A DNA stretch of 63,350 nucleotides, filler included, from Reclinomonas americana ATCC 50394 (GCA_048213135.1; 7 parts of 3 records of this genome joined end to end with filler, not necessarily neighbours in it); one strand, 5' to 3'; counted from the first letter of the whole stretch, positions 396 through 45,847 are shown. The notes: generated by a model from the letters alone, not told the origin. Made by a program: numbers and translations.

Positions 396-2568
396 ATGGT
401 CCGCCGGAGCAAACCTAAGCGCCTGGAAGCCGCCGAAACCAAACACTGCGACACCGTACGCCACCTCCTCGCCTCCAACTACTCCCCCGCCGCCACCGCC
501 TTCCTCGAGTGCTTTCGCGAATTCCAGAGCCTGCGCGGCCTCGACGACCCCTGGACCCTCACCTCCTGGCACTTGTACTTTGCATGCGCCGCGCACGTCG
601 CCAAGCTCCGCTCCCAGGCGCTGTCGGTGCTGCAGGAGCAGACCCTGCCGGCGTTTCGGCGCGTCTTTGGCCAAGCACACCCGAGCACCCTGGCGGTGAC
701 GGCGACACTCGGTGGCCTGCTCACGGCGTTGGATCGGGGCGATGAGGCCGCGCGCGTGCTGCAGGAGGCGCCGCCTGTGGAGGACGCGGTGGTGGAGAAG
801 GAGGCGTGGGCCGCGGACGCGGAGCAGGCGCTTCTCGCGATGCACAATGTCGCCGCTGGCCTGGTGGCCTACAAGAGCGTCAGCCGCGGGGCCGAGCAGA
901 TCAGCTCGCTGCGCGAAAAGCTGCAGCGCGGGCGAATGGCGCTCGGCGAGGATCACAATGCGGTGTTGGAGACGGCGCGGTGCTTGGGCGTTGAATTGGC
1001 GCGCAGTGGCAGTGCCGAGAACGTGCAAGAGGCGCTTGCGCTGTTGCGCGACACGCACGAGCGGTGCAAGCGAGTGCTACAGGCCAACAGCCTCGTGGCG
1101 GTCAACACCGCGGCGAGCCTGGGAGTGGCGCTACGCGCTGCCGATCAGGTCGACGAGGCCATGCCACTGCTCGTCAGCGCGCTGCGCCTGATGCCGCCTG
1201 ATGCAAAGTTCACCGCAGAGGCGTCGTACTGTGTGGCGTGCATGTTGTGCGGAAAAGGCCGGCAAGCGGAGGCCTTGTCCTACTGGAAAGAACAGCATCA
1301 TCGACTGTGGAAGCCGCGCTACACGCCGGGTTCCGCTGCTCATCTGGAGTACCTGCTACTGTGTCACATGTTGGGCGAGAATCTCACGAGGACCAGGCTC
1401 TACGCCAACGCCGTGCAGTTGTTGCAACCGGTGTTGACCGCACGGCGGCAACACCTCGGCCACGACCACGTCGATACGCTCGCCACCGCATACTGTGTGA
1501 GCAATGCCCGGTGCTTGGCTCGTCAGTTCAACGAGGCCACTGTCACGCTGTTGCGCGACACGCTGGAGCGCTGGCAGCGAGTGTTCCCGGGTGAGGCGGA
1601 GGATACAAAACTGGTGACCATCAAGCACAATCTCGCCGTGGCTCTTGGCGCCACTGGCAAGCACCAGGAGGCGGCCGAACTAGGTCGGTGGGTGCTGGAA
1701 CGACGGCGACAGGTACTCGGTGGCGATGCGGATCTCACTTTGCTGAGTGCCTCCAACTTGGCCCAACACCTCACACGGGCCGGCGGCGAGGAGAATTTAA
1801 ACGAGGCAGTGACTGTGTTGGAGGACCTGCTAGCGCGCCGCCGACGCCTCCTCGGTGTCGATCACACAGTGTCGCTCGACACGGCGCGCACCCTCGGCAA
1901 CACATTGCGTGCTCATGGCCGGTATGACGAGGCCGTCGCGCTGCTACGTGAGACGCTGGAGCGACAACAACGCAATCAACTACACTACGCGACCGGCGGT
2001 ACGATGCTGGAGACGATGGAAGCGCTCGTTCTCGCCCTCGACAGCATGGGTCGCAGGGACGAGGCGATTGCCATGGGTCGCGATCTCCTGAAGCGACGTC
2101 GGTTCACGTACGGCCTCGAGCACACACTCACGCTGGCCTGTGCGCACCGCCTCGCGGTTCAGCTGGTGGCAGCTGGCGCGGCGAGCGAGGCGGTGCCGAT
2201 GTTGGAGGACACGCTAGCGCGTCGGCGGCGAACACTGGGTGCCGAGCATGAGGACGCGCAACGGACGGCGGCGGAGTTGGAGAAGGCTCGGGAGGCGGTG
2301 GCTGCCGCCGCTGCACGGTGCATGGAACGCAAGCGTTCTGCCTCGCCAGTGGGTGCGTTGACTCCCCTCACTGTTGATATTTGTTTCTTTTGTTGGTTTA
2401 CTCACCGCATGCATGCATGCATGCATGCAGGCGTCGAGTCGTCGCCACCGCCGGCACAGAGGCAGCGAGTTGCGTGTAGTATGTGTGCAGTGGGGTATTT
2501 GGCACGAGTGTGGTGCTCACTAGTTGCATTGGCAGCCTTCTTCGCCGCCTGTTGGTGGCCTGGAGATT

Positions 2569-2600
<32 letters not shown>

Positions 2601-2616
2601 CGAGGCGCAGCAGTGA
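396..2616 (+). CDS. TPR-repeat protein (42-aa TPR_10/TPR_12, kinesin-light-chain/NPHP3-like repeats), paralog 1; exons 396-2352, 2431-2468, 2536-2616
   Basis: Long ORF with recurring 'RR.LLG.DH..TL....LA/LG' repeats. The two 3' introns are inferred by aligning with paralog 2, which shares the exons GxxSSPPPAQRQR and PSSPPVGGLEIQ. The ATG follows a polypyrimidine tract and TTTTAG acceptor, so an upstream exon probably exists. Confidence 0.85.
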
Positions 2617-2671
2617 GGTAGTGGAGAGAGGAAATGTTGGTGGTAATGGAGAAGGGTGAAGTATGTGTGTG

Positions 2672-3990
2672 TTAAGTTAAGTACAGGCAGTGTTTCATAT
2701 TGTACAGCGGGGTTAGTGATGGAGGCAAAGGATCTGAACACGTACAACAGTCGGCGAGATTGTTGATCAGGGTGGTGAAGAAGGGCGGTGCATTTGAAGC
2801 AAGGTAAGTGTACACAATCCATGCAGTTTGTGAAGCAGCGTGTGGTCCGATCAGCACCTGGACAGGATAGGGTGACGGTGAGGCAGTCTTTACATTCTTG
2901 TGCAACAATGTGTGTCACACGATCAGCACTTGGCACTGTTGGCTGAAGCGAAGCGCTTGCTCACTGCCTTGGAGGTGAGCACGCGCTTGTGCGATGCTCG
3001 GCTGTGGCAGCGCTGCTTGGGTACAGTGATTCCCAGCATCCGGGCAACCGTGTCCCACACTGCTCGCAAGTGGTTTCCCTGCTTGCACGAATCTGGGTGA
3101 GTGGTGTAGCGAACGCGATGCAGTCTGTGCAACAAAGCACCTGCTCGGGCCGCAGATGGATCGGAACAGACTTTGCGCCTGCGATGAAGACATTGTTCGC
3201 GCGCCCCAAGCAGTCAGTGACGATCGACGTGCTCGTGGTGGCAGGCGTGCACGTGGTCCAGAATCGACGGTCCTTGGCCACGGGGTTTGCTGGAGGCGCG
3301 AAGGTGAGGAGGAGGGAGTGTGGGAGAGAAAGGAAGAGAGAAAGAGATAGCGAGAGACGATCTGAGAGGAAGACGTCACATTCGTGATGTGCGATCCCGG
3401 AGACAGCTGCGCTATTCTCCTTACCTGGGAGACCATCAAGAGCCATATGCATCACCTTCAACGGTTGCTTGGGGGGCAGCTTTGGGAGGACAAAGCTGTC
3501 GTCCACGAAGACCCTGGCCATGGTGTCGTATGGCCTTGCAATTGGAAAGTGAGTAATCAACACATGCATCGTCGGCAGTACATAATCGCCAAGGAAAAGG
3601 GAATCCCACAGGGAGATCAACTATCCCCCACACAGAACCGCACGCGCGACACACCGCAGCAGAGTGTGAGATCGTGTGCGCAAAAAGCAGCAAATTTAAA
3701 GTGCACAACAGCGCACACGCTCACCGGCAACCGGAGTCGAGGACGGTATGGCCGAGGCCACACGGGCGATGCCGAGAGACCCATAGTTGGAGGGAGGGGG
3801 AGAGCAGACGAGCACGCGACCCGCTCCCTGACAAGAGAAACACGGCAAACAAAAAACTTGTCAATAGTCGTCGGGTCTGTGAAACAAGACAACAACCGCG
3901 TCCACTGTTGTGGGAATAATGTCGCCGCGCATTGTCAGTCGTCAACGCACACCTGGAAGCTGCTGACCTCGCCAGAGGAGATTTGAGGCC
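2672..3990 (-). CDS. Uncharacterised multi-exon protein (orphan family U, copy 1); ends uncertain
   Basis: Exons '...RRFWT...VPIHLRPEQ' and 'GNHLRAVWDTVARMLGITVPKQRCHSRASHKRVL' are separated by a GT-AG intron at 3140-3079. The sequence is clearly homologous to 9118-10069, with the same intron position. Confidence 0.5.
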
Positions 3991-4263: not shown

Positions 4264-6700
4264 ATGGTCCGCCGGAGCAAATCCAAGCGCCTCGAAGACG
4301 CCGAAACCAAACACTGCGACTCCCTCCGCCTCCTCTTCGCCCTCAACTTCTCCACCGCCGCCACCGCCTTTCTCGAGTGCTTTCGCGAATTCGAAGAACT
4401 ACGCGGCCTCGACAACCCCTGGACCCTCACCGCCTGGCACTTGTACTTTGCATGCGCCGCGCACGTCGCCAACCTCCGCACGCAGGCGCTGTCGGTGCTG
4501 CAGGAGCAGACACTGCCGGCGTTTCGCCGCGTCTACGGTGACGCGCATCCGAGCACCTTGGCGGTGACGGCGACGCTCGGCGGCCTGCTGACGGCGTTGA
4601 ATCGGGGCGACGAGGCTGCGCGAGTGCTGCAGGAGGCGCCGCCTGTGGAGGACGCGGTGGTGGTGAAGGAGTCGTGGGCCGCGGATGCGGAGCAGGCGCT
4701 GCTGGCGATGCACAATGTCGCCGCTGGCCTGGCGGCCTACAAGGCAGCGGCAGTGGTGCCGGCCTCTGCTGAGGTCGGCACACTGCGCGTGCAGCTGCAG
4801 CGCGGGCGATTGACGGTCGGCGACGACAATCAGGCCACGTTGGAGACGGCGCGGAGCTTGGGAGTCGAATTGGTGCGAGTCGGCGGTGCGGAGAATGTGC
4901 AGGAGGCGATTACGCTGCTGCGCGACACACACGAGCGCTGCAGGCGGGTGCTGCAGGCCAACGACCTGGTGGCAATCAACACAGTGGCGAGTTTGGGAAT
5001 GGCGCTGCAGGCCGCTGATAGGATCGACGAGGCCATGCCGCTGCTGGTGAACGCGCTGCGCCAGATGCCGCGTGAGGCGCCGTTCACCGCAGAGGCGTCG
5101 TACTGTGTCGCGCGCATGCTGTGCAAGAAGGGCCGGCGAACCGAAGCCCACACGTACTTGCAGGGACTGCATCAGCGACAGTGGAAGCCGCGCTTCACGC
5201 CGGGTTCCGCTGCTCATCTCGAGTACCTGTCGCTGAGTCACGTGTTGGGCGACGAGCTCAAGAATCACGGCCACCACGGCGACGCCGTGCAGGTATTGGA
5301 ACCCGTGCTGGCCGAACGGCGGCAACTGCTCGGCCACGATCACGCCGACACGCTCGCCACGGCGTTCAGCCTGAGTGTGGCGTTGGGTTTGGCGCGTCGG
5401 TTCGACGAGGCCACTGTCGCGCTGCTGCGCGACACGCTGGAACGCCTGCAGCGGGTGAGTGCGGCCGGCAAGGAGGACGCCAACGTGGCGACAGTCAAGC
5501 ACGATCTNNNNNNNNNNNNNNNNNNNNGTGACAGCATGGTCTACACCGAGCACGTAGCCACGACGGCGCACGAGATCTCGACCCATCGCAATCGCCTCGT
5601 CCGTGCGACCCACGTCGTCGAGTGCGAGAGCGAGCGCATCCGTGGTTTCCAGTAGGCGATAGTGGTCCTTGTAGAGCGTGCGCTGCTGTCGTTCCAGTGT
5701 GTCGCGCAACAGCGCGACGGCCTCGTCGTGTCGGCCGAGAGCGCGCATGGTGCTGCCGAGGGTGCGGGCCGTTTCGAGCGTCGTCGTATGATCGACACCA
5801 AATCGGCGTCGTTGGCGCGTCAGAGTGTCCTCCAAGAGCGCCACGGCCTCCTTCAGATTCTCCTCGCCGCCGGCCAGTATGAGATGTTGAGCCAGGCTGA
5901 CAGCACTCTGCAACGTGCGCTCCGCATCGTCGCCGAATTCATGCCGCCGCTGCTGAAGCACCCACCGGCCGAGTTCTGCCGCCTCCTGGTGCTTGCCCGT
6001 GGCGCCGAGAGCCAGGGCGNNNNNNNNNNNNNNNNNNNNNNNNNNNNNNNNNNNNNNNNNNNNNNNNNNNNNNNNNNNNNNNNNNNNNNNNNNNNNNNNN
6101 NNNNNNNNNNNNNNNNNNNNNNNNNNNNNNNNNNNNNNNNNNNNNNNNNNNNNNNNNNNNNNNNNNNNNNNNNNNNNNNNNNNNNNNNNNNNNNNNNNNN
6201 NNNNNNNNNNNNNNNNNNNNNNNNNNNNNNNNNNNNNNNNNNNNNGCTGACCAGTGCACACCACCTCGCGGTCCGGTTACTGAGAGCGGGCGGTGCGGCG
6301 AGCGAGGCGGTATCGCTGTTGGAGGACACGCTGGCGCGTCGGCGGCAAACACTGGGCGCCGAGCACGAGGACACGCAGCGGACGGCGGCGGAGTTGGAGA
6401 GGGCGCGGGAGGCGGTGGCTGCCGCTGCTGCACGGCGTATGGAACGGAAGCGTTCTGCCTCGCCAGTGGGTAAGTGATGGTGCTTCCCTTGTCTTGTGAT
6501 TGTTTGCTGAAGTCTATTCAGGTGATGCGTCGTCGCCACCACCAGCACAGCGGCAGCGAGTTGCGCCCACTCAATTTGTGCATGGCGGTACGTTGAGCGC
6601 GGGTGGTGTCATTGATAATCATCGGCAGCCGTCGTCGCCACCCGTTGGTGGCCTGGAGATTCAGCCGTCGTCGCAGCAGGCGGAGCAGGCGGAGCAGTGA
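4264..6700 (+). CDS. TPR-repeat protein, paralog 2; its middle part (5528-6019) is a flipped contig reading on the minus strand; 3' exons 6246-6469, 6522-6559, 6629-6700
   Basis: Colinear with paralog 1 from 'MVRRSKSKRLEDAETKHC'. The sequence 'VKHDL' | (minus) 'ALALGATGKHQEAAELG...DHAV' | 'LTSAHHLAV' matches the uninterrupted paralog 1 sequence. Confidence 0.85.
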
Positions 6701-6880: not shown

Positions 6881-8511
6881 TCACTTAGCCCCCTCGAGCT
6901 CATCAGCGGGATCAACATCCACACACAAAACAAACTGCCGCAGTCGTCTGCTCAGCTCCTGCTCTTCTTTCTCCTCCTTCTCCTCCTCCTCTGGCTTCTT
7001 CTTCTTCTTTCCCGACGGCGTCACAGCCGCCGGCCTGTCCATCACCTTGAACACGTGTGCAGGCACCACCCAATAAAACCTCACGGGCTCATTCTCCTTG
7101 CAGCCCAGTGCTCGCAGCATCGCCGCCAGACCGCTCCTGCCACTCTTGGTCACTGCCTTGATGGTGTGGTCTTCGTTGACGGTCATGTTGCCGACAGTGA
7201 AGGCGGCAGATCCGTCGTTGACCGACAGCACAAAATGCACGGCAGCAAAGTTCTTGGCCAACGGCCGCCAGTAGTGAGGTCCGCCGCCGCCCGCAGCCGC
7301 CGCCACCACCTGCGCCACATCGTCAAAATCATGCATCGTGCACCGCGGAATCTCCACCTTCGTCTCCACAACATCACCGCTGGTGAGCAGCTCACGGCAT
7401 GCAAACTGGCCTCCGGCAGCCAGCACGCCATGCGCCATCTCCTCAAACACATGACCAGAGAGCACCGAGCCGACAGCACCCAGCATGCGCAGCCTCGACA
7501 GCAGGAACTTGACGTTCTGCCGGGCGGAGACGCGCCAGAGCCGGAACAGCTCCTTCATCACGTAGTGTGACGCAAAGTCGACGCTGGTGAGCCTAAAGTC
7601 ATCGCGGTTGACAACGAGGTGCAGGAGGCGGTGTGAGATGGTGTCCTCGCGGTCGTTGAGAGTGCCCGCCGCTCGGAAAAGGTCCTCGGGCATGAAGCAG
7701 GAAAAGGCGCGCTGCAACCCTAGTTGCGCGTCAGCGCCGACGTTGGCGAGCACCATTCGTGCCGATCCGCCCCACTTGAGGTACCGCTGCAGCACCTCGT
7801 CGCGGTCTTGACTGGGGAATGCCACTTGTCGCAGCAGCTCGATTTCCTCATACTCATACGTTGGAAAATACAACGGCACCGCGCCGCGCTTCTCATAGGT
7901 CTTCCAGAGCAGTCGGTTGGGCGACGTGATGAGCAGTGACATGGTCACCTCGTCGGGCTCGTACAGGCCGGGCGCCGTGCCGTCCACCAGATACAGGTCG
8001 ATGTGGTGATCCTGTAGAAAGTAAGCCTCGTCGCGGGACCGCCACACTCGATCGCCAACGATGAGGTAACGCGTGTAATTGTAAACGTCACCATGACAGA
8101 GCAAGATCGTCTTCTCCGCCAGCAGGGCGCGGTAGAGCACATACATGCCGAATGCCGACTTGGAGCTGGCACAAGAGAGAAGAGAAGAGAGCAGTGAGGG
8201 AGTGAGGAGTACTGCGGACGAACCACGGCACATCAACTCAACACGCCAGGCGTGCCCGTGATGAAAAACTTGGACAGCTTTCCACGTGACCGAGCAGGAT
8301 CCAAGCCACCGAGACCGGCAGATGAGGAGTACAGGCGGTCGTAAAAGTCACGCACGAACAGAATGGGTGATGCAGTGCCGGGCCACGTAAAGCCCTCCTC
8401 CAACTCGATGTAGGTGGCGTGTGTAATGTCGTTCGTCTTGGTGCGTGTGGAGGTTACCGGGTCGACGTGCCACAGAGCGGCACGGCGCATGGCAGCGATG
8501 CGCTTCTCCAT
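6881..8511 (-). CDS. Crinkler (CRN/CR)-type P-loop NTPase + restriction-endonuclease-fold protein; exons 8511-8243 and 8165-6881, possibly a short upstream exon near 8650
   Basis: Motif order matches CR-NTPase+REase proteins: LFVRDFYDRL, ITGTPGV|SKS (Walker A), YLVDG (Walker B), ITSP, YFPTY..EEI, WGGSARMVL, SHRLLHL, FAS, G.VFEEMAH..L..GG, YWRP..KNFAAV, MTV..DH.I, FYWVVP...F, QFVL. Confidence 0.8.
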
Positions 8512-11194: not shown

Positions 11195-11344
11195 GGACGG
11201 AGACTTTCTCTCGACTCAGGAAACCTGCTGCAAGTAGGCAGAGCAAAACACACTACAGACAAAGAAAACAACGGTAACATTCAAGTGCAACAGGCACACC
11301 GACATAAATCAAGAAAGCTTGCGCATGCTACAATTTCACGCAAC

Positions 11345-12821
11345 TCGTCAGAGTCGGTGCCTGAGCCGCCCGCAAAGTCCTCATCGTCGGACTCGGTGGC
11401 CGCCTCATCCTCCTCCTCTTCGTCGTCGTCCTCGCCAGCGAGTGCGTCCAGCTCCTTTTGGCGCTCGAGTTCCTACAATGGAGGGGAAGGAGAAGGGCAA
11501 GAGAGGTGAGTGAATCAGAAGGGAGATAGGAAACAAGAGAACGGTAAGGAATCAAAAGGCAAAAGAGACAAGGAAACGGAAGAGAAAAAGGTGAATCACT
11601 GGGGAACGATACCGAGAGTGAACGAAGACAAGAGTGGAATGAGAACGCCCCGATAGATGAATGGACAAGAAAACGAAATGGAAGCGAATGGTGACAAGGA
11701 AACGAAGAGTAAGCGAAAGCAAGGGAAACTGAACGGCAAAATACAAGGAAACGTAAAGAGAAAGGGAGGGAATGGCGAACGGACAAGAAACTGGAAAGAG
11801 AAAGGAGACAAGGTTTTCTCGCTTCTCGCTGCTCTCGCTGCTCTCCACATCTCGCTGCTCTCGCTGCTCTCTTCTATCGCTGCTGCTCTCTTCTCTCGCT
11901 GCTGCTCTCTTCTCTCACTGCTGCTCTCTTCTCGAAAGAATGAGACAGGCGAAAGAAGGGCGAACGCGCAAGCAACCAGCTGCAGAAAGCCAATGCGCTA
12001 CAACGAAAAAACAAGGAGAGGCGACTTGTATACAATGAAAGGAAAGAAAGAGAGAATAGAAAAGAAGCATGCAAAACAGAAGGGATGAGTCTCTTCTCTT
12101 TCCCTCGTTGCCTCTCTTCCCCTCCACCCTTTCCCCATTCCCACCCTTTCCCCTTTTCCGACTCACCGACTTGGCCCTCTGCATCTGAATATTCTTCTCC
12201 TTCAGATAGTTGGCCAGCGGCTCATACTCATCCTTCGCCACATTATTGAAGAGGTACGACTCGCCCGTGGTGGTGGTGACGCTAAACTCGAAATGCTTGC
12301 CCGAGCCGGCACCCTCCGTGCGCTTGAACTTGACGGCGCTAATCGCCTCGTGGCGAATAATCAACACCGGCTTGTGCAGGAAGACCACGTTGCGCTCCAG
12401 CGGGAAGAAGGAGCCCTCGTCGGCCTTGTACGAGCAGCGGATGCACGAATGGCCGTCGGCGCTGTGCACAATGTGAGCACCAAGGTTGGAGTGAGGGCAA
12501 GGGCAACTGAGTGAAAGCGTACCTCTTGAAGTGACCCGGGCCAAGAATCTTCTTCTTGGTGAACGCACGCAGTGTCTGGCCGAGAATTTCGTAGAAACGG
12601 CCGCTGATCGTGTGCGACAGACCCATTTCCTTGAGCTTTTCTCTGCAAGAGGGGTGAGTGCAGGAGATGAGAGAGCCTGTCTTCAGTCGCGCACATAAAC
12701 GCAACTCGGGCAGGTGGATGACCAGTGGATCACTCTCGTCAACCACTTCCTCCTTGTCGAGGTTGAACACCAGATTCGGGTACATGGTTTGGCCGAGACG
12801 CACGGCGGGGTCCAGCGAGAC
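11345..12821 (-). CDS. SSRP1: FACT complex subunit SSRP1/Pob3, middle PH (Rtt106-like) domains and start of the acidic region; exons ~12821-12706, 12642-12523, 12461-12167, 11472-11345; 5' exons missing
   Basis: VSLDPAVRLGQTMYPNLVF, KKILGPGHFKS, CIRCSYKADEGSFFPLERNVVFLHKP, FEFSV and YLFNNVAKDEYEPLANYLKEKNI match the SSRP1/Pob3 consensus (LDPPIRQGQTRY; CSYKA..G.LYPLE..F.F..KP; F..I.KEEY..L..F...K). Confidence 0.92.
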
Positions 12822-16100: not shown

Positions 16101-17096
16101 TAGTGCCATGTTTCATGATGAGGAGAGACCAGTTGCGCGAGGGAGGGGCAAGGGGGCGAAGGGGNNNNNNNNNNNNNNNNNNNNNNNNNNNNNNNNNNNN
16201 NNNNNAAGGAGGGGAAGGGAAAAGGGGAAGGGAAGGGGGAAGTGAAGGGACGAGTGAGAGGAGGAATCGGGAGGGAAGAGCGGAGAAGAGGAAAGCAATG
16301 AGATTGTGAAAGTTCTCTATCACTCTTGTTGCTCTTCTCTCTCTTTGTCTTGCTTGTTTCTTACCTCTTTTTCTCCTCTCCTTCTCTGATTTCCTCTCTT
16401 CGTCTCTTGATTCCTTCTATCTTTCTCTGTCTTGTCTAACTTTCTTCTCCTGTTATTCTCTCTCTCTCTCTGTTTTCTTTCATCTCTCCCGATCTCTGTA
16501 GAGCTGTCCTTCTTTCTTTCTATCTTTTCGTGTTCCATTCTTCTGTCTTCCCTCATTCTCTCTTCTCTTATTTTCTCTCTTTCTCTCACACACACGCACA
16601 CACACACATACTCGCTCTCTCTCAATCTCGCTTTCTGTTTCTGCCTGACTTTCTTTCCCATTCTGTCTCTCGTTGTGTCTGTGTCTCTCTCTCTCTCCGT
16701 TTTTGATCTGTATCTCTTCTCTCTCTTGTCTTCTTTCGCTCTTTCTGTTTTTTCTGTTTCTCGTCTTCCTCTTGCTGCCTCTCTTCGCTCTCTGTCTTCA
16801 TCTCCTTTTCTCTGCCTCTTTTTGTCTTTCTTGTTTATGTTCTCGTCTGACCTAGTGCAAGAAAACTTGGTGCAGTTGGTACTCGTACGTCACTCTATGA
16901 ATGCTTGATCACACGAAGCTGTGCACCCTTTGAATGACGGCACGAGTGTAGCCTTCCTCGGCTCGCTTTCTCTCTTCTCTCTCGGTCTCTTTTTTTCGCT
17001 GTTTTCTTTCTTTTAGTTCTGTGTGTTTCTCTCTCCCTCCTTTTCTTCTTTTCTCCTTCCTTCTCTCCCTCACCCANNNNNNNNNNNNNNNNNNNN

Positions 17097-19169: not shown

Positions 19170-20703
19170 TTATACAAATGGACTAAAATTGCCGCCCTTG
19201 CGCTCCATCTCGTTGATCTGGTCGCGCAACTTGGAAGTCAGCTGGATGGTCTCCAGCAGCACGGCTCGCAGTTGGTCCTTGGTCTCTTGGCGCAACACGT
19301 GGGGCGCCTGCACGGCGCGTGTGTTGCGTGTGGCCCCACCGGGGGGCAGCCTAGATAAGGGGAAGGGTGGAGTGAGAAACGTGACAGAGATACAGGAGAA
19401 ATGAAAGCAAATGTACTGAGAAAAAGAGAAAGACATGGGGAGAAGTGAAGAGTGAGAAACGGAAGAAGTTGAANNNNNNNNNNNNNNNNNNNNAAAGGGA
19501 AGAGGGAAGGGAACAGAGTTTGAATGGCTCCATGTCTCTATCGTCCTTGCTTTGTCTCACCACCTCTCTCCCTTTCCCATCACAGACCTCATGAAGCTGC
19601 TGAAGAAAGTCAACCGCTCCTACCGGCTGCAGTCGACGACCACAAAAGGGCGTGTCGACATTGACCAGCTGCGCGTGGAGGTGATTGAGGGCGACAAGGT
19701 CGTCAAGGAGCTGTCGATGAACATGTTTGAGCGGGAGTTCCGCTCGCTCAAGGAAAAGGAGCGCGCGAGGTCACGGAAGGCCAAGTTGAGTGGGAAGAGG
19801 GAGAAGAGAAGGGAAGGAAGGAGAAGGCGGTATGAGAGAAGAGCAGAGGTGCGAAATGGAAAGAGAAGGGAGCGCGGTGAGAGAGAGGGTCAGTGTTGAC
19901 GAACCATCTCTTTTCACTGTTTCTTGTCGTTCGTTTCGCTGNNNNNNNNNNNNNNNNNNNNCCCCACCCCCCTTTCCCCCACTCACCATTCGCCTCCTCC
20001 ACCTTCCTCGACGTACTGGCCAGCATCTCCGCCTCCGTGGCATTAATCTCCGCATCCACTCGTTTCCTCTCATCCTCCGCCTTGGAGAACATGCCACGAA
20101 TGCGCTGCGCTGCCTTGGCGGTGCCGGAGGAATCGGGACTGCTCGGCGCGTGCCGGTAGTGTGCTTGCTGCTGGTGGTGATCCATCGAGTCCATGGTGGA
20201 GCCGGTGGCGCCGAGCGAGCCAATCTGATTCGACGGTGCCGAACGCGGTCGACCGCCGCTGGAGGCCGACAGAGGTCGCTGCGAGCCGCCGAGACTCTGC
20301 CGTGACCCGGGCCGGTTCATGCGATGCGGCGGGAGAATCGGCGGTGGGGTGGCCACCACACCGAGACTGCCGCTGCTCTTACGCTTGCCGCCCTGCCCGA
20401 ACTGATTGACCGGCTGCGAGTAGGGCGAGGTGGCGAGCTTGTCGCGCATCGACGGCAGCGTGCCGCTGCCGAGTGGGCCCGATGAGCTGAGGACGGGGTC
20501 GGGGAGGCGCGAGAGCACGCGCAGTTGGTCCATTAGTTCGTTGGCGTAGCGGTCGGCACGCATGCGGAGGGACGAGGAGGAGCCGTTGGTGGCGCCGGTG
20601 GCGGCCAGCGCGGAGGCGTGGAGGCCTTCCTGGGCGTAGTTGTGCATGGTGGTGTGCATGAAGAATTCGTCGTGGGCGGGGCCGGAGGGGGCGTGCCGGG
20701 AGT
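19170..20703 (-). CDS. Uncharacterised coiled-coil protein, 3' exons 20703-19987, 19586-19784 (flipped contig, + strand), ~19350-19170
   Basis: Phases join cleanly as ...KVEEAN|DLMKLLKK...RSRKAK|LPPGG...SPFV*, with high-GC3 coding bias. Confidence 0.7.
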
Positions 20704-30798: not shown

Positions 30799-30801
<3 letters not shown>

Positions 30802-31057: not shown

Positions 31058-34000
31058 AACCAGCTGGCTTCCTGAAGGACAAGAAGAAGAAGAAGTACAC
31101 CGACGAGACCACAGCCGCCATTGCCGCTGCCCGACGTGACGCTGAGCAGGGTGCGTCTCTCTCTCTCCCTCCTTCTTGCTGTCTGTGGTGTTCTCGCGTC
31201 ACGTGTTGTCTCAGCTGGGCCGTGCATGTACACAGCTGCTGACCAGGAGCAAATGGAGCACACATCGATGGAAGGCATCGTCGAGGTACAGTGATTGTTT
31301 GTGTCATCCCAGATCGGCATGTATCTCACTTTTCTCTCTCTCTTTCTCGCTCATGGCATGATTGCACAGCAACGCGCGAGGAGACAGCGAGTCGACTCGT
31401 CTCAGGTGGATCACAGCGAGGACTTGCCTGCACGTGATTCAGTTGACACATCGGTCCGCAAGCGTTCTCTGGAGGTGAGGTCCGACGAGGCACGCGTCTC
31501 ACGTGCCTCCCGCTTGTGCATCGCAGTTAGCACCTGATGTTTTCTCTTCATTCTCTGCAGGTGGATGCATCCAGCGAGGACGAGCTTGCACCGCCGAGAA
31601 AGAGCAAGAAGAAGGTTTGGATAGCTTCATTGTCATCTCTGTGTTCGCTCATCGATCTGCCTTTGGGTTCCATGTGTCAATGCTGCATGCTATGAATTCT
31701 CAGCGAGGCAAGGCGCAAGCTGCGAAAAGCTCAGTGGAATTGAGCGCAGACGAGAAGCTGCTGCTGAACAAGCTGCTTGTTGCGTGTGCATGCTCTCTGT
31801 CATCTTTTTAACCCATGGCCACCTTGATCCTCCTTCTCGTCGATGTACTCACCATTCTTACTGTGTCTCTCGCAGCGATGCAATCGGAAGAGGATTCTGG
31901 TGAAGGCATTCGGCCTGATGGCATCGATTGTTCAGCAATCCACTGTCCTCCACCATCAGAGTGTTCTCTTTGAGCTTGCCTGCGACGAATGCGGGGTTCC
32001 ATTGTCGGAGCCGGGTCGCACGTCGTCTGCAGTCAAGAGTGCATTTGGCAAGAGACTTGGCTGGACTGCAAGTGATTCGCGCAGCAAAACGCCCAAATCT
32101 GTGGAGGGCGTGCTGAAGAGCGTGAGCAACTACACCGAGGTGAGCAAGCATGTGTAACTGAATGACCATGGCATGTTGAACCAACATGCAGATGATTGCA
32201 ATCTGCAGATGAGCCAGCTCAGTGGCGCGGCTCTGGTGGATGCGATTGAGAGACCACTCATTGTGGTGGACGAGCGCGGGTATTCGGAGGTGCGTTCTTC
32301 TGTGTCTGTTGTGATAATGTCAGCTGACTTACGTTCACTCGGCTTGTATGTGCCAGGAATCGTGGGAGAGATTGCCTCTTCATTCCAAGACCAAGAAGGA
32401 CCACCTTCAGCCATTTGTCAAGCACGCCATGAAAGCGATGCGCGAGTGCGGTTGTCTCATGGCTGCTCTGCTTCGAAACAATCACCTCACTGAGGCCGAG
32501 ATATCACGCGCCGTCACGTGGTGCCGATCGAAAGGTCTGCAATCTCATACCGCTGTTGGTGTTGCTTGCACTGGTGTTGACCAGCACCACGCAGAATATG
32601 GCGATGTGAAGATGGTGGTGAAGAAGGAGGAGGAAAATGACGGAGAGGGCGATGCCGTCAATTTCGAAGACGATGACGTCAAGGTACGAGCAACAAAAGC
32701 TGCGGGCGCGCAAGTGTTCGTGGACTTGGTCGACCATCGATATCTTGTGCGTTCATAGGCGGATGCGGAGAGTGACAATGACGGAGAAACAAAGCCGAGC
32801 AAGGTACGGCGATGCCCGATGTTTGTGGATGGTTGGTGAGGCAGGTGTTGATTGTGGATATTACACGGGGTATGCACTTGCAGCGCCTCAAGAGTGGTCG
32901 TCGTGTGCCGGATGTGGATTTGAGCAAGGACGAGCAGATGGTGCTGGACAGACTGCTTGTTGCGTGTGCGTGTCCACTGCACCTCAGCAAGGCAGAGTGA
33001 TTGACTCTGCCATGTGGCTGCCTGTCATAACACCTGCGCGTGTGTGCGTAAATGCGTGCGAACAGCGATGCAACAAGAAGAACATACTGGTGATGGCATT
33101 CGGCATCATGGCGCCGATTGTGAAACGAAACGCAGTCTTGCATCATCAGCGGGTTCTGTTTGAACTCGCCTGCACGGAGTGTGGCATTCCTTCGTCAGGA
33201 GCTGGCTCTCCGTCATCAGCAGTAATGGAAGCATTCGGCAAGAGCCTCGGCAAGCTCGCACGCACCACCACACCCAGGTCAGTTGAAGAAGGGCTCCAGA
33301 GCATGAGCAAATTCATCGAGGTGAGTATCTGTCTGTTCTGTCTATCTCGCGCGACTGGAATGTGAGCCAACATCATTGCATGCACAACTCTTGCAGAAGA
33401 GTGAACTGCGCGGTGCTTCTCTGGTGGATGCCATTGAGAGACCACTGATTGTGGTGGATGAACGTGGGCATTCAGAGGTGTGCCGACGTTCTCTTGTGGT
33501 CCTTGCATTTCGCGGTTTGTGTTGACTCACGTGCATCTTTCACGATGTCGGTCGTGTTGCAGGAATCATGGAAAATGATGGAGATGAAGCAGAAGAAAAA
33601 CGACCATCTCCTGCCGTTCATTGTGCAGGCCGCGCAGGCCCTGCGTGAATGTCCTGGCTTTCGGACGATTCTGATTCGAGACGGCTGTCTCTCCAAGGAG
33701 GAGATCGAACGGGCCGTCGAGTGGTGCAGTGAAAGAGGTTTGATGGCATCGGATGCGCTTCTACTGTGTGCATAGTGTTAGGACTGACGAGTAAGATGCA
33801 GCTCTACTTGAGGCGACGGTGCCGAAGAAAGAAGAGATGAAGGAGGAAGAGGAGGAGGAGGAGGAGGAACAGGAGGATGATTCAAGGGTCGGCAGGGAAG
33901 ACGATGAAGACGACGACATGGATGAGGCTGACAGGAGGAAGGTATGGTCATGGATGATGGGACAAGTGCACGTTGTGGCATCATCTCATCTGTACATGCA

Positions 34001-37000
34001 CAGCGACGAGGGAGTGGTCCTGCAACAATGAGCAGGGACGAACAACTGATGCTGGCAAGGCTGCTTGTTGCGTGTGTTTGCAGTCGAGTGTCCTTGCGTA
34101 AGTCGTCTTGCTCATTGTGTGTTAATCGCACCACCCATGTGTTCATGCGAGAGCAGTGCTGCAACAAGAAGAAGATATTGGTGACGACATTCGGCATCAT
34201 GGCGCCGTGTGTGATAGGATCCACGGTCCGTCATTACCAGCGCGTTCTTGTTGAACTCGCCTGCAAGGAGTGTGGCATGCCTTCATCGAAAGCAGGACGG
34301 CTTTCGTCGGCAGTCGTGAGCCCTTTCGGCCAGAGTCTTGGGCATGTCGTCGAATCTGCACGCAGGAAGACGCCCAAGTCGGTTGATGGAGTGCTCCAGA
34401 TGTTGAGCAACTTTGTCGAGGTGAGTATCGTCTATATCTCTCGACTAAATCGAAGGCCATCATTTCTAATGTATGTGCCACTATGCAGAAGAGTGAACTG
34501 CGCGATGCGGCTCTGGCGGATGCCATTGAGAGGCCGCTGTTTGTGTTGGATGAACGTGGTCATTCGGAGGTGTGTAGCTTCCCCGCGCTCAGTGTGCTCA
34601 GCGCACCCGTTGTTTCTCACGTTCTGTGTATGTGAATTCGGATGTCAGGAGTCGTCACGCTTGCCAGGGATGAAGCGCAACATACAGAATCCTTTTCTGC
34701 CATTCGTGACACAGGCCGTGGATGCTCTCCACAACTGCCCGGGTCTGCTGGCCATTCTGCGTCGAGACGGTTCTCTTTCCGAGGCGGATANNNNNNNNNN
34801 NNNNNNNNNNTTACTCGTGCCGTCAAGTGGTGCAGTGAACGAGGTTTGGTTGCGTGACACACATTGTTGCAAAGTGTGCATACTCTGACGAACAGGCAAC
34901 AGCTCTGAAGGAGATGGAGATGATAAAGAGAGAAGAGAAGAGGGATGACGAGCAGGAGGATGATACCGGGAGCGAGAGTGAAGATGTCAACTCGGGAGAG
35001 AATGGCAGGAGCAAGGTACATTAGTCGCTGTGGCACGCAAAAGGTGAGTATCTAAACAATTCATTGTGTGCATTTCGCAGAGCCACAACAGTGGTCCTGG
35101 GAAGCTGAGCATCAACGAGCAACTGATGCTGGCGAAACTGCTTGTTGCGTGTTGCTGTTAACTCTGCACATGGCTGATAAAACAGTCGTGAACTCCTCAC
35201 TCCCATCTACCCGCATTTCTGTTGAGCAGGGTTGCAACAAGAAGAGGATACTGGTGAAGGCATTCGGCCTCACGGCACCCGTGGTGATGCCATCCACAGT
35301 CCTCCACCACCAGCGCCTTGTCTTTCAGCTTNNNNNNNNNNNNNNNNNNNNGCCTGTGATGAATGCGGAATGCCGTCAGAGGGACCTGGCTGTCCGTCAT
35401 CCGCAGCCATGTCTGCATTTGGCAAGAGTCTTGCCAATAGTACCAAAACGGCACGCAGCACGACGCCCAAATCAGTGGAGGGCGTGCTTGAGACAGTGAG
35501 CAACTTCATAGAAGTGAGTGTCTCTGTGTTGACTTTGTTTTTCATTCGACTGTGCCGCGCCTGCTTGCTGATCCGACATTCATGTGTATGTGGAATCATT
35601 AGAAAAGCGGTCTTCGAGGAGCTGAGCTGGCGAACGCTGTCGAGAGACCAATAATTGTGATTGACGAACGTGGCCATTCTGAGGCATGTGGACTGTGATT
35701 GTGTGCATCGATGTGCGTCAATTATGTTGTCTCACTTTCTCAATTCTCGGGTGGTAGGAATCAGCCAAGCTGACGCAGACAAGCAGCACGCAAAGTCCCC
35801 TTCTGCCGTTCGTCACTCAGGTCATGCAGGCTCTCCGCAATTGCCCTGGCCTTCTGGTCACTCTGCTGCGAGACGGTTGCCTCTCTGAGGAAGATATGGA
35901 GTGTGCTGTCGAGTGGTGCAGTGAACGAGGTTTGGCTGCGTGATGCGCATTGCTGTACAGTGTGAGCAGGTGCTGACAAGCAATGGACAGCTCTGAGGGA
36001 GATGGAGATGGTGAAGAAAGAGACGAAGGAAGAGTACGACGAACAGGCGGATGATGATGATGACGGCAGCGAGAATGAGGACGATGACGGGGAGGGGAAA
36101 AGGAGACACAAGGTACGCCCGTCACTGCTATCTACATAATGAGACGTGAATGATGTGTGCATTTCAAAAGCTGCGCGGTTCTCAATCACAGCGCCACAAG
36201 AGTGGTCTTGCAAAGTTGAGCGTCAACGAGCAACTGATGCTCATGAGACTACATGTTGCGTGTTGTTGTTGCCTCTCTGCTCGGCTCCTCACTCCCACTC
36301 ACCCAGCGAACATGCGAACAGGGCTGCAACAGGAAGATGGTGCTGGTGGAGGCATTCGGCCTCATGGCTCCCATGGTTGTGGCATCAACGATTCTCCATC
36401 ATAAGCGTGTTCTCTTCCAGCTTACCTGTGACGAATGCGGAATACCGTGTGAGGGACCGGGCTGTCCATCATCCGCAGTCATGTCTGCATTTGGGAAGAG
36501 TCTTGCCAAAAGTGCCAATGCGGCACGCTACAAGACGCCCAAATCTGTGGAGGGAGTGCTCAAGAGTGTTAGCTACTTCATCGAGGTGAGTGTCAGTGTT
36601 CTGTTTCTGTGTCGCCTCCGAACGCGACGTTCTGTTGACTGACTTGAGTTCAATATATGCGGGATCATCAGAAATGCGGTCTACGAGGAGCTGCGCTGCT
36701 GGATGCTGTCGAGAGACCACTGATTGTGATTGACGAACGTGGTTACTCTGAGGCATGTCTTCTGGATGTGTGGTTCTGTGGATCGATGCAAGCATGCTCA
36801 CAATGCGTACTCTCGGGTGGCAGGAATCGGCAAAGTCTTTGAGGGCAGGTCCTCCAAATTCCCTTCTGCCATTTGTCATGCAGGCCATGCAGCTGCTTCG
36901 CAACTGTCCAGGTCTACTGGCCACCTTGCTTCGAGACGGTTGTCTTTCGAAGGCGGAGATTGCGCGTGCTGGTGGGTGCTCCAAATGCACCAGTCTGGGA

Positions 37001-37123
37001 GCTTCTGTTGTTGTTGCATATCGTGCCACCTTCAGCACTGACTCGCATGATGCAGTGTTGGATGACGAGAAGCCGCTGAAGATGAAACTGGTGAAGAAAA
37101 AGGAGGAGGAGGAGGAGGACTAG
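31058..37123 (+). CDS. Five-module repeat family, copy D (exon 2 onward; modules start ~31703, 32884, 34003, 35081, 36192)
   Basis: EPAGFLKDKKKKKYTDE exon onward. Module-1 core exon 31876-32139 (88 codons), next exon 32209-32289 (27 codons); stop TAG 37121-37123. Confidence 0.8.
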
Positions 37124-39311: not shown

Positions 39312-39411
39312 NNNNNNNNNNNNNNNNNNNNNNNNNNNNNNNNNNNNNNNNNNNNTTAATTAATTAANNNNNNNNNNNNNNNNNNNNNNNNNNNNNNNNN
39401 NNNNNNNNNNN

Positions 39412-40609: not shown

Positions 40610-43600
40610 GCGTCGGCCGCGGTCGTCGAAGGGGGGTGGAGAGCGGCGGCCGCCCGGGGGCATCCATTTGACGGGTGGATTGGGACTGAGAGGCAAAGGG
40701 GGATTAAGGGAAAGGGGCAGAAAGGGAAAGGGGGTTTAAGGGAAAGGGATAGAAGGGAATAGGAGGAGAAGAAGAGAGGGGAAAGGGAAGAGGGGAAAGG
40801 GGATAGAGAGGGGAAGAGAAGAGGGAATAGGAAGAGAAGAAGAGAGAGGGGAATGGGATAGAAGGGGAAGGGATAGAAGGGGATAGGAGGAGAAGGAGAG
40901 AGAGGGGAATGGAAAGAGGGGAAAGGAAAGAGGGGAAAGGGGATAGAGAGGGGAAAGAGAAGAGGGAGCGGTAGAAAGAAGAGAGCAAAAGAAATGAAAT
41001 AAGAGGGCGAGTATGCACTAACCGCATCATTCCCGGACCGCCAAATCCAGGAGGTGGCGGCATGTCGGGGTAGAAGGGTGGTGGTGGCATATCTCGACGG
41101 CCTGCGAAGACAGCGCATGAGCCGCAGACATCAAATACGTCGCACTTTCAAAAATGTAGCCCACCTGGTAGTGACGGCGCCGGCAGCACACCACCCGCAC
41201 CACTGGTACCGCCCGGTGGCATGCCCATGGAGGGCGGCGGTGGTCCGCCGTTGCCGCCCATGGACGCCGGTGGCATGAGAGGGTAGCCCATGCCGGGTGG
41301 GGGTGGTGGGTAGCGCATGGGTGGTGGCTGCTGCTGTTGCTGCTGCTGTTGTTGTTGCTGTCGCATGTTGTCGTTGGGGGCGGAGAGGTGCTCGCGGCGG
41401 AACTTTTCCGAGCGGAGCATCTTTTGCAGGGCGGCGTATTGCTTGAAGGTTTGTGAGTTGAAGCCGTAGTTGAAGAAGTCGGAGATGTCCACGCCTAGTA
41501 GGGGGAAGGTTTGAGGCAAAGGTGGGGAAGGGAGAAGGGGGGATAAGGGGAGAGGAGAGAGAAGGAAAAGAGAAGGAACAGAAGAGAGAAGGAAAAGAGA
41601 GAGAGAGAGAGATGCAGAGAAGAATGTGGCAAAGGGCGGAAATGGGGAAGGGAAGGGGGTGAAAGAAAATAGAGACAGAGGAGAGAGAAGGAAAAGACAG
41701 AGAGAGAAGAACATATACACATACGGGTTGAGAGAGATGTAGAGAAGTAGAATGAGGCAAAGTGGGGATATGGGAAAGGAGCGAAGGAAAAGAGAGGAGA
41801 GAAGGAACATATGCACAAACGGAAAGAGAGAGACATGTAGAGAAGTAGAATGAGGCAGAGGAGAAAAGGGAAGGTAGCGAAGGAAAGGAGAGGTGAGAGA
41901 GAGAAAGAACACATACAAAAACGGAAAGAGAGAGATGTGGAGAAGTAGAATGTGGAAGAGAAGGGGGTGAAAGAAAAGAGAGGAGAGAAGGAAAAGAGAG
42001 AGAACATATGCACAAACGGAAAGAGAGAGAGATGTAGAGAAGTAGAATGAGGCAAAGGAAGGAAGCGACATAAAAAGAGAGAGGAGAAAGGACGGAATGG
42101 AGAGAGAAGGAACCCCACAAACAGAAAGAGAGAGTGAGAGATGAAGAGAAGTAGAATGAAGCACAGGGGGAAAGGGAAGGTAGCGAAGGAAAGGAGAGGA
42201 GAGACTACGATGAAAAAGTTTAATGGAGAGAGAAGGCACCCCACAGAAAGAGAGAAAGAGAGATGAAGAGAAGTAGAATGCGGCAAACAGGGGAAATGGG
42301 GAAGAGAAGGGGGCGAAAGAAATAGAGAGAAGAGACTACGATGAAAAAGTTGAATGGCGAGAGAAGGACCCCCACAAACAGAAAGAGAGAGAGAGAGAAA
42401 GAGGTAGAAAAAGGAGGGGAAGAAAAACAACAACTGAAAATTGAGCGAGGGAAGAAACAAACCTGGCTGCGTCCACGGCTTGTCGACCTGCTTGTCCGGG
42501 TCCTCGTCCCACATGTCCATGTTGACAAATGGTCCGCCCGTGAAGTGCGCCGCCGAGAGACTGGCGACGTTGCCTTCCACTGTGTGGAGAAGAGGTCAGC
42601 CGACAGACTCCCGTCACCTCCTCCTGTTCCTTCGAAAGACGCAACTCTGCGGTCCCTTCAATGCCGCTCCCGCACCACCCTGCGCACCGCGCCCGCCGCG
42701 GTCGCCGTACGCGATGCTCATTTGGCCGCCGCCCTGGCGACCACTGCCGCCGCTGGGGCCGCCAGAGGGGGCGCCGAAGCCCGGGCCGGTGTCGTTGATG
42801 ACGAATTCGACGGATTCCTCGCTGAAAAAGGAAAAGGGGAAGGGTGAGGGAGGGGGAAGAAAAAGGGAATGGCGAGGAGAAGAGAGAGGGGGGATAGACG
42901 GGTGCAAGACGGAATAGAAGAATGCGCAGAAGAGAGCTGGCATCCATCGGAAACAAGTCCAACAGAGAGGTGGACAAATGAAACGGCACGCGGAAGGAGA
43001 GAAAGAGAGAGAGAGAAAGTGGTCGTGAAGTATGAGAAAAAGGAGAAGGATTGGCGTGTGAGTGCAGTGTCCAGCAGCACAACAACAGTAGCAATGTGAC
43101 GGGAGAGAGAGAGCGTGCGCGGAACCAAGACCCTGTGCAAGACGATCGAGAAGGAAGAGAGCGAGGGAATCAAGACAAGGGAAAGCGCAGAGGAAAACCC
43201 CCCAGTGGTAAATCAGAAAGAGAGAGAACGATTGCGCGAGAGATTGTATGAGAAGTGGAAAGAAAGCAGGAGTTCAGGAATACAATAAAGAGCACAAGGA
43301 TACCAGACTCCGCACGGAAAGTGTGTGGGACAGAGAGGGAGAGAGAGCAAGAAACCAAACACTGCATGACAAGATATTGAGAACATTTGTGCGATAGACA
43401 GGATGGAAAGGGAGAGAAAGCAAGAGTCGAGCAATACAACGGAGAGCACACGGAGGGATACCAGATTCCGCACGGTGAGAGAGAGAGAAAGAGAAACCAG
43501 ACACTGCATGAGAAGGAGAAAGAGAGCGAAGGAAACAATGCTTAGAATAGAAACGAGACAGATTGTGTAAGAATGAGAAAGAAGCATGCGGAGCGGGAGT

Positions 43601-44451: not shown

Positions 44452-44808
44452 TTAGCGCTCGCTCACTTGCAGAGATGAAAGGGACAGATGCGCGTCCTGT
44501 GCGTGTCCTGTGCGCGGGAAACTCAAATTTGTTTTTTGTGTGTCGCGATGGTGAGCGCGTGCAGAGAGTAAGAGAGGGAGGAAAAGAGAGACAAAGGGGG
44601 TGCGCTGTGGGTGAAAGAAGAGAAAGAGAGCAGTGAAATTGAGTTGTTTTTTCTCTCACAGACAGGTGTTCACTGTGAGAGTGAGTGAGTGAGTGTGTGT
44701 GTGTGTGTGACAGAGAGGCAGAGGCAGAGGGAATGCGTGCTGTGCCTGAGAGAAGAAGAAAAACGCGCACAATTTGAGTTGTTTTTTCTCACTGACTGTT
44801 ACTCATTG

Positions 44809-44898
<90 letters not shown>

Positions 44899-45503
44899 GA
44901 CGACGACGACGTACGTACGNNNNNNNNNNNNNNNNNNNNGAAGGGCGATTTGAGACAAGGGCGGGGAAGCAGAATGGGAAGACTTGGATGTCATAGAGCG
45001 AGAGAATGCGCCTTCTCGTTCTGTTGTCTTTTGTTCTCTTCCCTTGTCTTGGAGAGAGGGAGAAGAGGAGGGCGATCTGAGACAAGGGAAGGCGAGGATT
45101 CGTGCTCTCTTTTTCTTGTCCTTTGGTCTCTTACCCTTGTCGGGGAAGGGGAGGGCGTGTGTGTGTATGTGTGAGAGAGAGAGAGAGGGAGAGAGACGCA
45201 CGAGCGATTGTCTCTCTTCGGCGATCTTGTGCACTCCCTTCTGTCTGTTCTCTGGTGTTCCCTCCTCCTCCGTTTCTTCTGCGTATTGCTTTCTCTCTGC
45301 GAGAGAGAGAGACCCACGAGCTATTTACTCTCTGCGGCGATATTGTGCACTCCCTCCTCTCGTTTATCTGGTGCCCTCTTTTCTTCGTATCCTTTGTGTG
45401 CTACATTGTCTGCCAAACCTGCAGTGCGTGTCTCTCTTTCTCATTCTAATATCCCTTTCCCTCACCCCTTCCCCTTTTCTCACCTCATTGCCCCATCCCA
45501 CAG

Positions 45504-45847
45504 CTACGCCAGCCTCTTCTTCATCTTCTGCGTCGACAAGAGCGACAACGAGCTGGTGTCGCTGGAGCTGATCCATCACCTCGTCGAGGTACTAGACCGG
45601 TACTTTGGCAACGTGTGCGAGCTCGACCTCATCTTCAACTTCCACAAGGCGTACTACATTATCGATGAAGTTGCGGGGGTGTGGACGGAGGGTGTGGGGG
45701 AAGGTATCTTTGGCCTTTGCTCATTTGCGACTGCAGATGTTCCTCGCCGGCGAAGTACAAGAGAGCTCCAAGAAGAGCATTCTGCGTGCCGTTGCCGCGC
45801 AAGATCAACTGATGGACAGCTTCTCCGACCCGAAGACCGAGACGTGA
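45504..45847 (+). CDS. AP1S1: AP-1 adaptor complex sigma subunit, last two exons 45504-45669 and 45737-45847; 5' exons missing (probably in the 44920 gap)
   Basis: [80 protein letters not shown] is the AP sigma consensus; YASL, LDRYFG.VCELD and KAY indicate sigma-1. Confidence 0.9.

Follow-up and report, generated by a model that had tools for sequence, protein, structure and literature searches.

Human genes hold the closest described counterparts of the donor class reported here. In them, the +1-shifted register and one-base bulge registers of pairing between the 5' splice site and U1 small nuclear RNA (snRNA) are experimentally established and rare (PMC4856993, Tan et al. 2016; shifted: Roca and Krainer 2009). 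According to the excerpted text of PMC4856993, all curated non-canonical registers together make up 2.1% of 201,541 human sites, with bulge +2/+3 predicted at 68 and bulge +3 at 51 of them (Table 3; Roca et al. 2012). Here we describe a 63-kb window of a eukaryotic draft pseudo-scaffold, the whole stretch of DNA that was analysed, in which introns of unrelated genes appear to begin with GTTGCG or GTTGAGT, jointly GTTG(C/A)G, rather than with ordinary donors such as GTGCG or GTGAG.

The human shifted-register sites, as presented in those excerpts, share the layout of the class: GU is followed by an extra pyrimidine and a consensus core, the exon end plus the +1 G replaces the usual ...AG, and the cut is made at the GU. 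The human test oligonucleotide ACA/GUCAAGUAUA (PMC4856993; slashes mark exon-intron junctions) is laid out like GA/GUUGCGU here. The human sites differ in being rare exceptions, whereas the class supplies six of 23 curated independent donors in this one window, and in their core, which is AAGU in human and G(C/A)GU in the present, predicted class. The human bulge +2/+3 and +3 registers likewise have an extra U right after GU and identical downstream pairing, but the bulge model predicts the normal preference for G at exon position -1, which is found here at 0/6 sites.

Entamoeba has nearly universal GUUUGU donors, a co-evolved U1 and few introns (Roy and Bowser, bioRxiv 10.1101/2022.06.08.495308). 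As far as the available sections of that preprint go, the two cases would be alike as lineage-level departures from GURAGU with U at +3, and unlike in that the atypical class here coexists with an ordinary majority in an intron-rich genome; with 17/23 curated donors ordinary and carrying G at -1, the atypical type does not come near universality. Mamiellales green algae, according to section 16 of that preprint, have a GYGCGY donor preference with a standard U1. Their GTGCG-type cores also pair imperfectly with standard U1, but that section reports no one-base shift. The available text of three alveolate genome papers (Porospora, PMC9250747; Amoebophrya, PMC7789003; chromerids, PMC4501334) describes no such donor class, and our literature search of open-access papers and bioRxiv returned no report of one outside human genes.

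Predicted introns opened by GTTG(C/A)G

The initial annotation of the window had placed GTTGCG at 2469+, 6560+, 11344-, 12705-, 42645-, 45670+, 24614+, 25801+, 26879+ and 27941+, and GTTGAGT at 8242- and 19785+, with an exon ending in A or T and never in G. All of these motifs are present, and the exon-end statement is true at every listed site. The further claim that the sites act as donors stands in part. Homology, paralogy or reading frame identifies GTTGCG or GTTGAGT as the predicted 5' splice site of six independent introns, while 11344- and 19785+ remain candidates only. One of the six is shared by a tandem repeat family treated below; the others, with the candidates, are as follows.

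45670..45736, + strand: AP-1 sigma intron, 67 nucleotides (nt), gaa/GTTGCGGGG...CTGCAG, placed by homology to solved AP-1 sigma chains
2469..2535, + strand: last intron of TPR gene 1, 67 nt, cga/GTTGCGTGT, placed by paralog alignment and in-frame tail
6560..6628, + strand: last intron of TPR gene 2 (paralog), 69 nt, cga/GTTGCGCCC, placed by paralog alignment and in-frame tail
8166..8242, - strand: intron of the P-loop (GTPGVSKS) gene, 77 nt, cgt/GTTGAGTTG, placed by Walker lysine and frame
12643..12705, - strand: SSRP1 intron, 63 nt, in frame, cga/GTTGCGTTT, placed by PDB alignment and branch site/acceptor
42580..42645, - strand: intron 3 of the Fip1-motif gene, 66 nt, aga/GTTGCGTCT, placed by frame and Fip1 motif
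11338..11344, - strand: candidate donor only, cga/GTTGCGTGA, after the SSRP1 acidic tail
19785..19791, + strand: candidate donor only, caa/GTTGAGTGG
16132..16137, + strand: further candidate donor only (beyond the earlier list), cca/GTTGCGCGAGGGAGGGG

The AP-1 sigma donor, which the initial annotation had fixed by IIDE/MFLAG homology, proved exact, with no gap relative to the solved chains. Exon A ends ...IIDE, its residues 1-55 corresponding to residues 62-116 of the PDB chain; the next exon, MFLAGE..., matches that chain from residue 117, with residues 3-33 of exon B corresponding to 119-149. A purpose-written spliced protein-to-genome aligner, which demands only GT and AG at intron ends, chose the intron 45670-45736 with 7/7 reference proteins. 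Exon identity was 91% to protein P0003, 84% to Plasmodium, 82% to Vitrella and 80% each to Cryptosporidium and Chromera. With apicomplexans and chromerids as its nearest matches, the exon points to an alveolate source related to apicomplexans, none of whose own proteins were in the database searched. Upstream AP-1 sigma exons were not found in the window by spliced alignment and may lie in gaps. P0003 (115 residues), compared with 45505-45844 (+), is a single open reading frame (ORF) across the ILDE/LF junction, yet extends into an apparent upstream intron; its ORF spans the AP-1 sigma junction, so its source may be without the GTTGCG intron.

Paralog alignment fixes both TPR donors as claimed: a 38-nt exon and GTTGCG are conserved, followed by immediate divergence with a 2-nt indel, and each spliced tail (...QRQR/PSSPPVGGLEIQ...) stays in frame up to a stop that the two genes share. 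In the P-loop gene the Walker A argument for 8242- also held, since of two in-frame GT-AG solutions only GTTGAGT retains the Walker lysine. This intron has a TGA in frame at +8, the GTTGAGT solution takes the first AG, and the spliced ORF is clean. The gene (6884-8511, -) had no Pfam family at E <= 0.1, and in its GTPGVSKS a Ser takes the place of the Gly usual in Walker A.

For intron 3 of the Fip1-motif gene, two GT-AG solutions in frame were found, and they share the donor 42645-. This gene has a clean ORF from ATG with four introns, and the Fip1 motif lies in the exon after intron 3. Its first intron, 43810-43871 (-), has unusual ends, cag/GTCTCACAA ... TCTGAAG, and is required to link the ATG exon to the acidic frame. 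For 12705- as the SSRP1 donor, alignment and intron signals give moderate confidence: the 63-nt segment is stop-free, its retention would mean 22 extra residues relative to human SSRP1 in the PDB alignment, and its branch site and acceptor read CTCAC and CAG. In spliced alignment with 10 homologues (30-45% identity), the sole reproducible SSRP1 intron was the one at 12522 (10/10). A protein search for a same-species or transcript-derived match to the SSRP1 exon found none.

Among the candidates, 11344- lies in an ORF that continues to a TGA 20 codons on, with no downstream exon found; 5/10 SSRP1 references used this donor, but with meaningless low-complexity acceptors. At 19785+ the ORF reads on; further 3' come canonical GTGCGA and GTGAGA, and a gap begins at 19942. 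A G-run block follows this candidate directly, as at other donors. The site 16132+ marks the end of an open frame of 102 codons, with a G-run block next and a gap after it at 16165.

Other occurrences were dropped as donors. GTTGCG at 27644+ and 34849+ was set aside after a by-eye comparison with type D repeat modules favoured GTGACA 5 nt downstream, GTTGCGC at 1043+, 1550+ and 5710- lies inside TPR coding repeats, and GTTGAGT at 30361-, 46479- and 60833- is antisense to the coding strand. Three computational routes to gene structure were of limited use. When frame-forced GT-AG pairs were enumerated between coding cores, spurious ones swamped the full list, of which only the high-scoring subset was used. 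An ab initio gene finder that presupposed no donor motif and used self-trained 3-periodic Markov models called genes on both strands and was too noisy, recovering five GTTGCG donors in a region with about 18 by paralogy. A local intron scan (branch site plus first-AG rule) favoured long wrong introns by its greedy choice and was not used for counts.

Comparison with ordinary donors

We curated 23 independent donors, counting paralogs once: two from the TPR genes, one from the P-loop gene, three from SSRP1, four from the Fip1 gene, one from AP-1 sigma, eight from the repeat family and four from a gene chosen without regard to the motif.

18154-19055, + strand: five-exon compact gene with donors GTGAGT, GTGAGT, GTTTGAGT and GTACGT and a clean ORF ending TAA

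About a quarter of the set (6/23) is GTTG(C/A)G, and GTTGCG is its commonest hexamer (5/23). The 17 others follow G/GTNNG (GTGAG, GTACG, GTGCG, GTTTG, GTCTG, GTTGG), with the one exception of GTCTCA. The two groups differ at three positions: G at exon -1 is found in 0/6 of the class and 17/17 of the others (Fisher p = 1e-5), G at +5 in 0/6 and 16/17, and G at +6 in 6/6 and 2/17 (Fisher p = 3e-4). In a model that treats positions as independent, derived from these 23 donors, 0.32 GTTG(C/A)G donors are expected where six were counted. Looseness by itself does not yield the coupled switches at -1, +5 and +6.

The exon-end consensus of the class is displaced by one base, with the +1 G in the slot of the -1 G and the -1 base in the -2 slot. 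The triplet at -2, -1 and +1 is GAG in three of the six donors and AAG, GTG and TTG in the rest; in the four non-family donors with an exon ending in A it is GAG, GAG, GAG and AAG, the usual exon end being GAG/, AAG/ or CAG/. GTTGGA at 24450 has G at both +5 and -1 and so behaves as an ordinary donor, which suggests that the change follows the shifted core and not the T at +3. The GTTTG donors (3/23) also keep -1 G and +5 G, consistent with the ordinary register. Introns of the class, counting the six independent ones and all 20 family copies, run GT...YAG, most with YTNAY 15-30 nt upstream of the acceptor, and are mostly 63-107 nt long. Judged by these comparisons of predicted junctions, GTTG(C/A)G is a real, distinct and recurrent donor class in the window.

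Raw counts tell less. The window holds 53 GTTGCG against 37.0 +/- 6.3 expected, 29 GTTGCGT against 8.2 +/- 2.9, and six GTTGAGT against 10.3, the last without enrichment. A single paralogous donor site of the tandem repeat family accounts for 18/29 GTTGCGT, and the raw GTTGCG(T) excess stems mostly from this family. Four of the six GTTGCGT outside the family stand at coding-exon ends (three supported donors and the candidate 11344-). With the hexamer excess mostly paralogous and the non-family count near chance, the signal lies in the position of the motif, not in its count.

The tandem repeat family

About 20 tandem modules of roughly 1.1 kb each lie on the + strand at 24.2-37 kb and 47.3-60 kb (24200-37100 and 47300-60700). 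They form five old types (A-E), at 56-82% amino-acid identity and with about four recent copies of each, and read as long multi-module open frames; without the proposed splices, the nine-exon frame at 24210-25800 would not be open. The family had no Pfam match. The protein collection searched gave no long homologue of it, and a search with exon 2 for same-species or transcript-derived proteins found none. Its introns before exon 2 are listed here with the evidence that places them.

24614..24705, + strand: type A, ctt/GTTGCGTGTG, nine-exon frame
25801..25900, + strand: type B, cat/GTTGCGTGTG, module alignment
26879..26969, + strand: type C, module alignment
27941..28010, + strand: type D, GTTGCGTATT, module alignment
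29003..29069, + strand: type E, variant donor GTTGTGTGT, module alignment
31779..31875, + strand: type A
32959..33065, + strand: type B, module alignment
34067..34156, + strand: type C, module alignment
35144..35229, + strand: type D, module alignment
36255..36321, + strand: type E, module alignment
47774..47863, + strand: type A
48961..48966, + strand: donor only, cat/GTTGCGTGTGTA; the remaining intron, with exon 2, extends into the gap 49113-49465
50412..50502, + strand: type C
51485..51561, + strand: type D, module alignment
52564..52630, + strand: type E, module alignment
54627..54723, + strand: type A
55807..55910, + strand: type B, module alignment
56908..56980, + strand: type C, module alignment
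57965..58050, + strand: type D, module alignment
59025..59091, + strand: type E, variant donor GTTCCGTGT, module alignment

GTTGCG had been noted in the first intron of nearly every module, and it is present in 18/20 modules at the intron before exon 2. The two variants, GTTGTG at 29003 and GTTCCG at 59025, change +4 and +5 only. The junction was reached by 14/19 module alignments, and 14/14 of these used the donor at this position; types A, D and E have no alternative in-frame GT. Across the five old types, conservation of the family donor is 16-17/17 at each of +1 to +9 and falls to 9/17 at +10, whereas in the family's two ordinary donors it is gone after +5. The module comparison indicates one ancestral donor, not twenty separate events, which was kept while the remaining intron diverged beyond recognition. 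Modules of types D and E also hold probable GC-AG introns, gag/GCATGC or GCATGT, at 28441 (+) and at homologous sites near 35680 and 58478 (by eye); the one at 28441 is the sole phase-0 site before an in-frame TGA.

Register of pairing with U1

Pairing was scored ungapped against the U1 5' end AUACUUACCUG, as printed in the excerpted text of PMC4856993. All 11 GTTG(C/A)G sites, supported and candidate, have 4-6 Watson-Crick pairs in the +1-shifted register and 2-4 in the canonical one, while 10/10 ordinary donors have 5-7 canonical and 2-4 shifted. In the shifted register, +9 is the end of the U1 5' end, which matches the limit of family donor conservation. The family donor, with T at -1, is without the exon A:U pair, and the family is the one that keeps +8 and +9. 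Positions +4 and +5, altered in the two family variants, are the wobble and mismatch positions of this register.

The best-supported reading, to which we give a probability of about 0.5, is that the class consists of genuine GT-AG spliceosomal introns recognised through a +1-shifted U1 register. The 5' splice site would be N(A/T)/GUUG(C/A)GU, an ordinary NAG/GUG(C/A)GU with U at the canonical +1 G that is cut at the GU one base upstream; GA/GTTGCGT, for example, would equal GAG/GTGCGT with T replacing the canonical +1 G. A U1 with an ordinary 5' end would pair one base out of step, through the pairs +1 G:C9 (intron), -1 A:U10 (exon), +3 U:A7, +4 G:Psi6 (wobble), +6 G:C4 and +7 U:A3. Family copies would add pairs of +8 G and +9 U with U1 nucleotides U2 and A1. 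The later spliceosome (U6/U5) would then set the cut at the sole available GU, possibly with help from other elements such as the G-run blocks after several donors. The initial annotation had described the class as an ordinary GTGCG/GTGAG signal one base out of register; the -1/+5/+6 pattern and the 11/11 pairing result fit this description, and the weak predicted duplexes count against it.

GGG/GA-run-rich blocks start directly 3' of several donors of both classes (12166-, 17590+, 16138+, 19792+, 45676+). They may be intronic splicing enhancers.

Several points weigh against the shifted register. Predicted duplex energies with standard U1 are -1.4 to -5.1 kcal/mol for the class, at -2.0 or weaker for 8/11 sites, compared with -5.4 to -9.7 kcal/mol for other donors, so pairing alone may not suffice. 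Counting pairs by register presupposes that the host's own U1 has the standard 5' end, and the -1 base is U, not A, in both the repeat family and the P-loop gene. The independent introns number only six, from genes partly picked by the initial annotation for carrying the motif, and the SSRP1 junction at 12705 is ambiguous, with the exact intron picked by 2/10 distant references and five solutions in all. Outside the repeat family GTTGCGT occurs six times against about 4.8 expected by length scaling, which is chance level. Finally, other donors also go without +5 G (GTCTCA in the Fip1 gene and, by eye, probably GTGACA in family types C and D), so the donor signal is loose in general.

Alternative explanations

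The rival that survives best, and one that we still consider unlikely, is a bulged-U register in which U1, and later U6, would pair +1 G and +2 U normally, one U (+2/+3) would bulge, and GCGU would pair as usual at +3 to +6. It makes the same pairs 3' of the extra U, so that +6 G, +7 U and conservation to +9 fit it equally; the bulge +2/+3 register is experimentally validated in human cells (Table 3 in the excerpts of PMC4856993), and U6 would probably need such a bulge to hold the GU at the catalytic centre. The exon side fits it less well. A bulge keeps exon -1 opposite U1 C9, so G should be favoured there as in ordinary donors, yet it is missing from the class (0/6 against 17/17), and the GAG/AAG triplet across the junction is left unexplained. 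RNA duplexfold, which allows bulges, chose no bulged structure at the GTTGCG sites.

Next in order, and to be doubted in its turn, is the view that there is no special class: the donor signal would be loose, GTTGCG a tolerated variant, and its recurrence the product of paralogy and gene selection. The 23 donors comprise 13 different hexamers, including GTCTCA, GTCTGC and GTTGGA, probable GC-AG introns are present, most GTTGCGT copies are one paralogous site with a near-chance count elsewhere, and the motif-blind gene 18154-19055 has a class donor in 0/4 introns. However, the same hexamer opens five unrelated introns where the position-independent model expects 0.32 GTTG(C/A)G, and coupled switches at -1, +5 and +6 are unexpected from independent loose positions.

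We regard as improbable, and place third, a dedicated variant snRNA, whether a second U1, a U6 with a changed ACAGA box or an altered U1 protein, that would match GUUGCGU directly. It would suit a hexamer whose predicted pairing with standard U1 is weak and which is nonetheless strongly conserved, in 18/20 family copies, both TPR paralogs and five independent genes, and the Entamoeba GUUUGU donors provide a precedent for U1-donor co-evolution in the available sections of bioRxiv 10.1101/2022.06.08.495308. Against this, ordinary donors (GTGAG, GTACG, GTGCG, GTTTG) are the majority and fit standard U1, a standard 5' end in the shifted register predicts the patterns seen at -1 and +9, and lineages with GYGCGY donors retain a standard U1 according to the same sections.

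It is very improbable that the boundaries are misplaced, with true donors a few bases off (for instance GTGTG at +5/+7, or sites in frame at +9, +18 or +21) or with segments that are not introns. In-frame alternatives do exist at +9 (AP-1 sigma, family types B and C), +21 (TPR1) and +18 (TPR2), GTGTTG lies two bases upstream in the P-loop gene, and the SSRP1 intron is in frame and stop-free. The AP-1 sigma junction, however, is exact to the residue, the alternative offsets differ by gene and paralog while GTTGCG is common to all, and the 2-nt indel right after the hexamer in the TPR paralogs and the want of an in-frame alternative in family types A, D and E also argue against displacement. Least probable of all are relics of introners, one mobile intron family whose 5' end was GTTGCG: P0003's source may lack the AP-1 sigma intron, implying recent gain or loss, but an all-against-all blastn-short comparison of 11 introns found only the first 9-11 bases and 8-12-nt chance matches in common, except in a paralogous type D/E pair, and the TPR and family introns are older than old duplications.

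TT...AG or both-ends-shifted boundaries were dropped, as the acceptors would be non-AG. Introns of the minor, U12-dependent spliceosome have the consensus donor /RTATCCTT and a TCCTTAAC-like branch site. They resemble the present class as a second donor class beside the main one, but both of these motifs are absent from the intron sequences here, and a U12-type assignment was dropped.

The window and its genes

The pseudo-scaffold window has 35 runs of N. Six of these are contig-joining spacers of the form N44-TTAATTAATTAA-N44, in which TTAATTAATTAA supplies stops in all six frames; genes across any spacer therefore need not be neighbours.

14228-14327: spacer (44 N, TTAATTAATTAA, 44 N)
21448-21547: spacer of the same form
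30617-30716: spacer of the same form
39312-39411: spacer of the same form
53694-53793: spacer of the same form
61089-61188: spacer of the same form

Introns are frequent and short, mostly 60-100 nt. Few genes were recognised: Pfam matches comprise two TPR paralogs, an SSRP1/Rtt106-like middle domain, a clathrin-adaptor small chain and a Fip1 motif. Neither snRNA genes (Rfam, at gathering score and E <= 1) nor transfer RNA genes were found in the window. Two long introns, 42822-43674 (-) of 853 nt and 11473-12166 (-) of 694 nt, are largely CT-rich and of low complexity, and these CT-rich introns account for the strong + strand purine skew at 40-45 kb. A gene with an (AAC)n-encoded Thr run is present three times, at 30000-30500, 46000-46760 and 60200-61000, each copy coming after a repeat-family block or after AP-1 sigma.

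Implications

Whether the pattern extends beyond the window is a more tentative matter. At somewhat less than even odds, the organism would use the +1-shifted U1 register routinely and genome-wide, in at least 10% of its introns and under purifying selection to +9, through either a standard U1 aided by G-run enhancers or a second U1 variant. Shifted and bulged registers have been described only from human genes, where they are rare exceptions, and if the pattern is true genome-wide this would be the first organism with a non-canonical 5' splice site/U1 register as a bulk genome feature. Gene finders trained on six-base GTRNGT-like donors would then wrongly annotate a considerable fraction of the introns here and in related genomes. 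A genome in which the shifted register is common would also be a natural test bed for the uncoupling of U1 binding from the later choice of cleavage site, for the true extent of the donor signal, which reaches +9 here, and for the co-evolution of snRNAs with donor classes.

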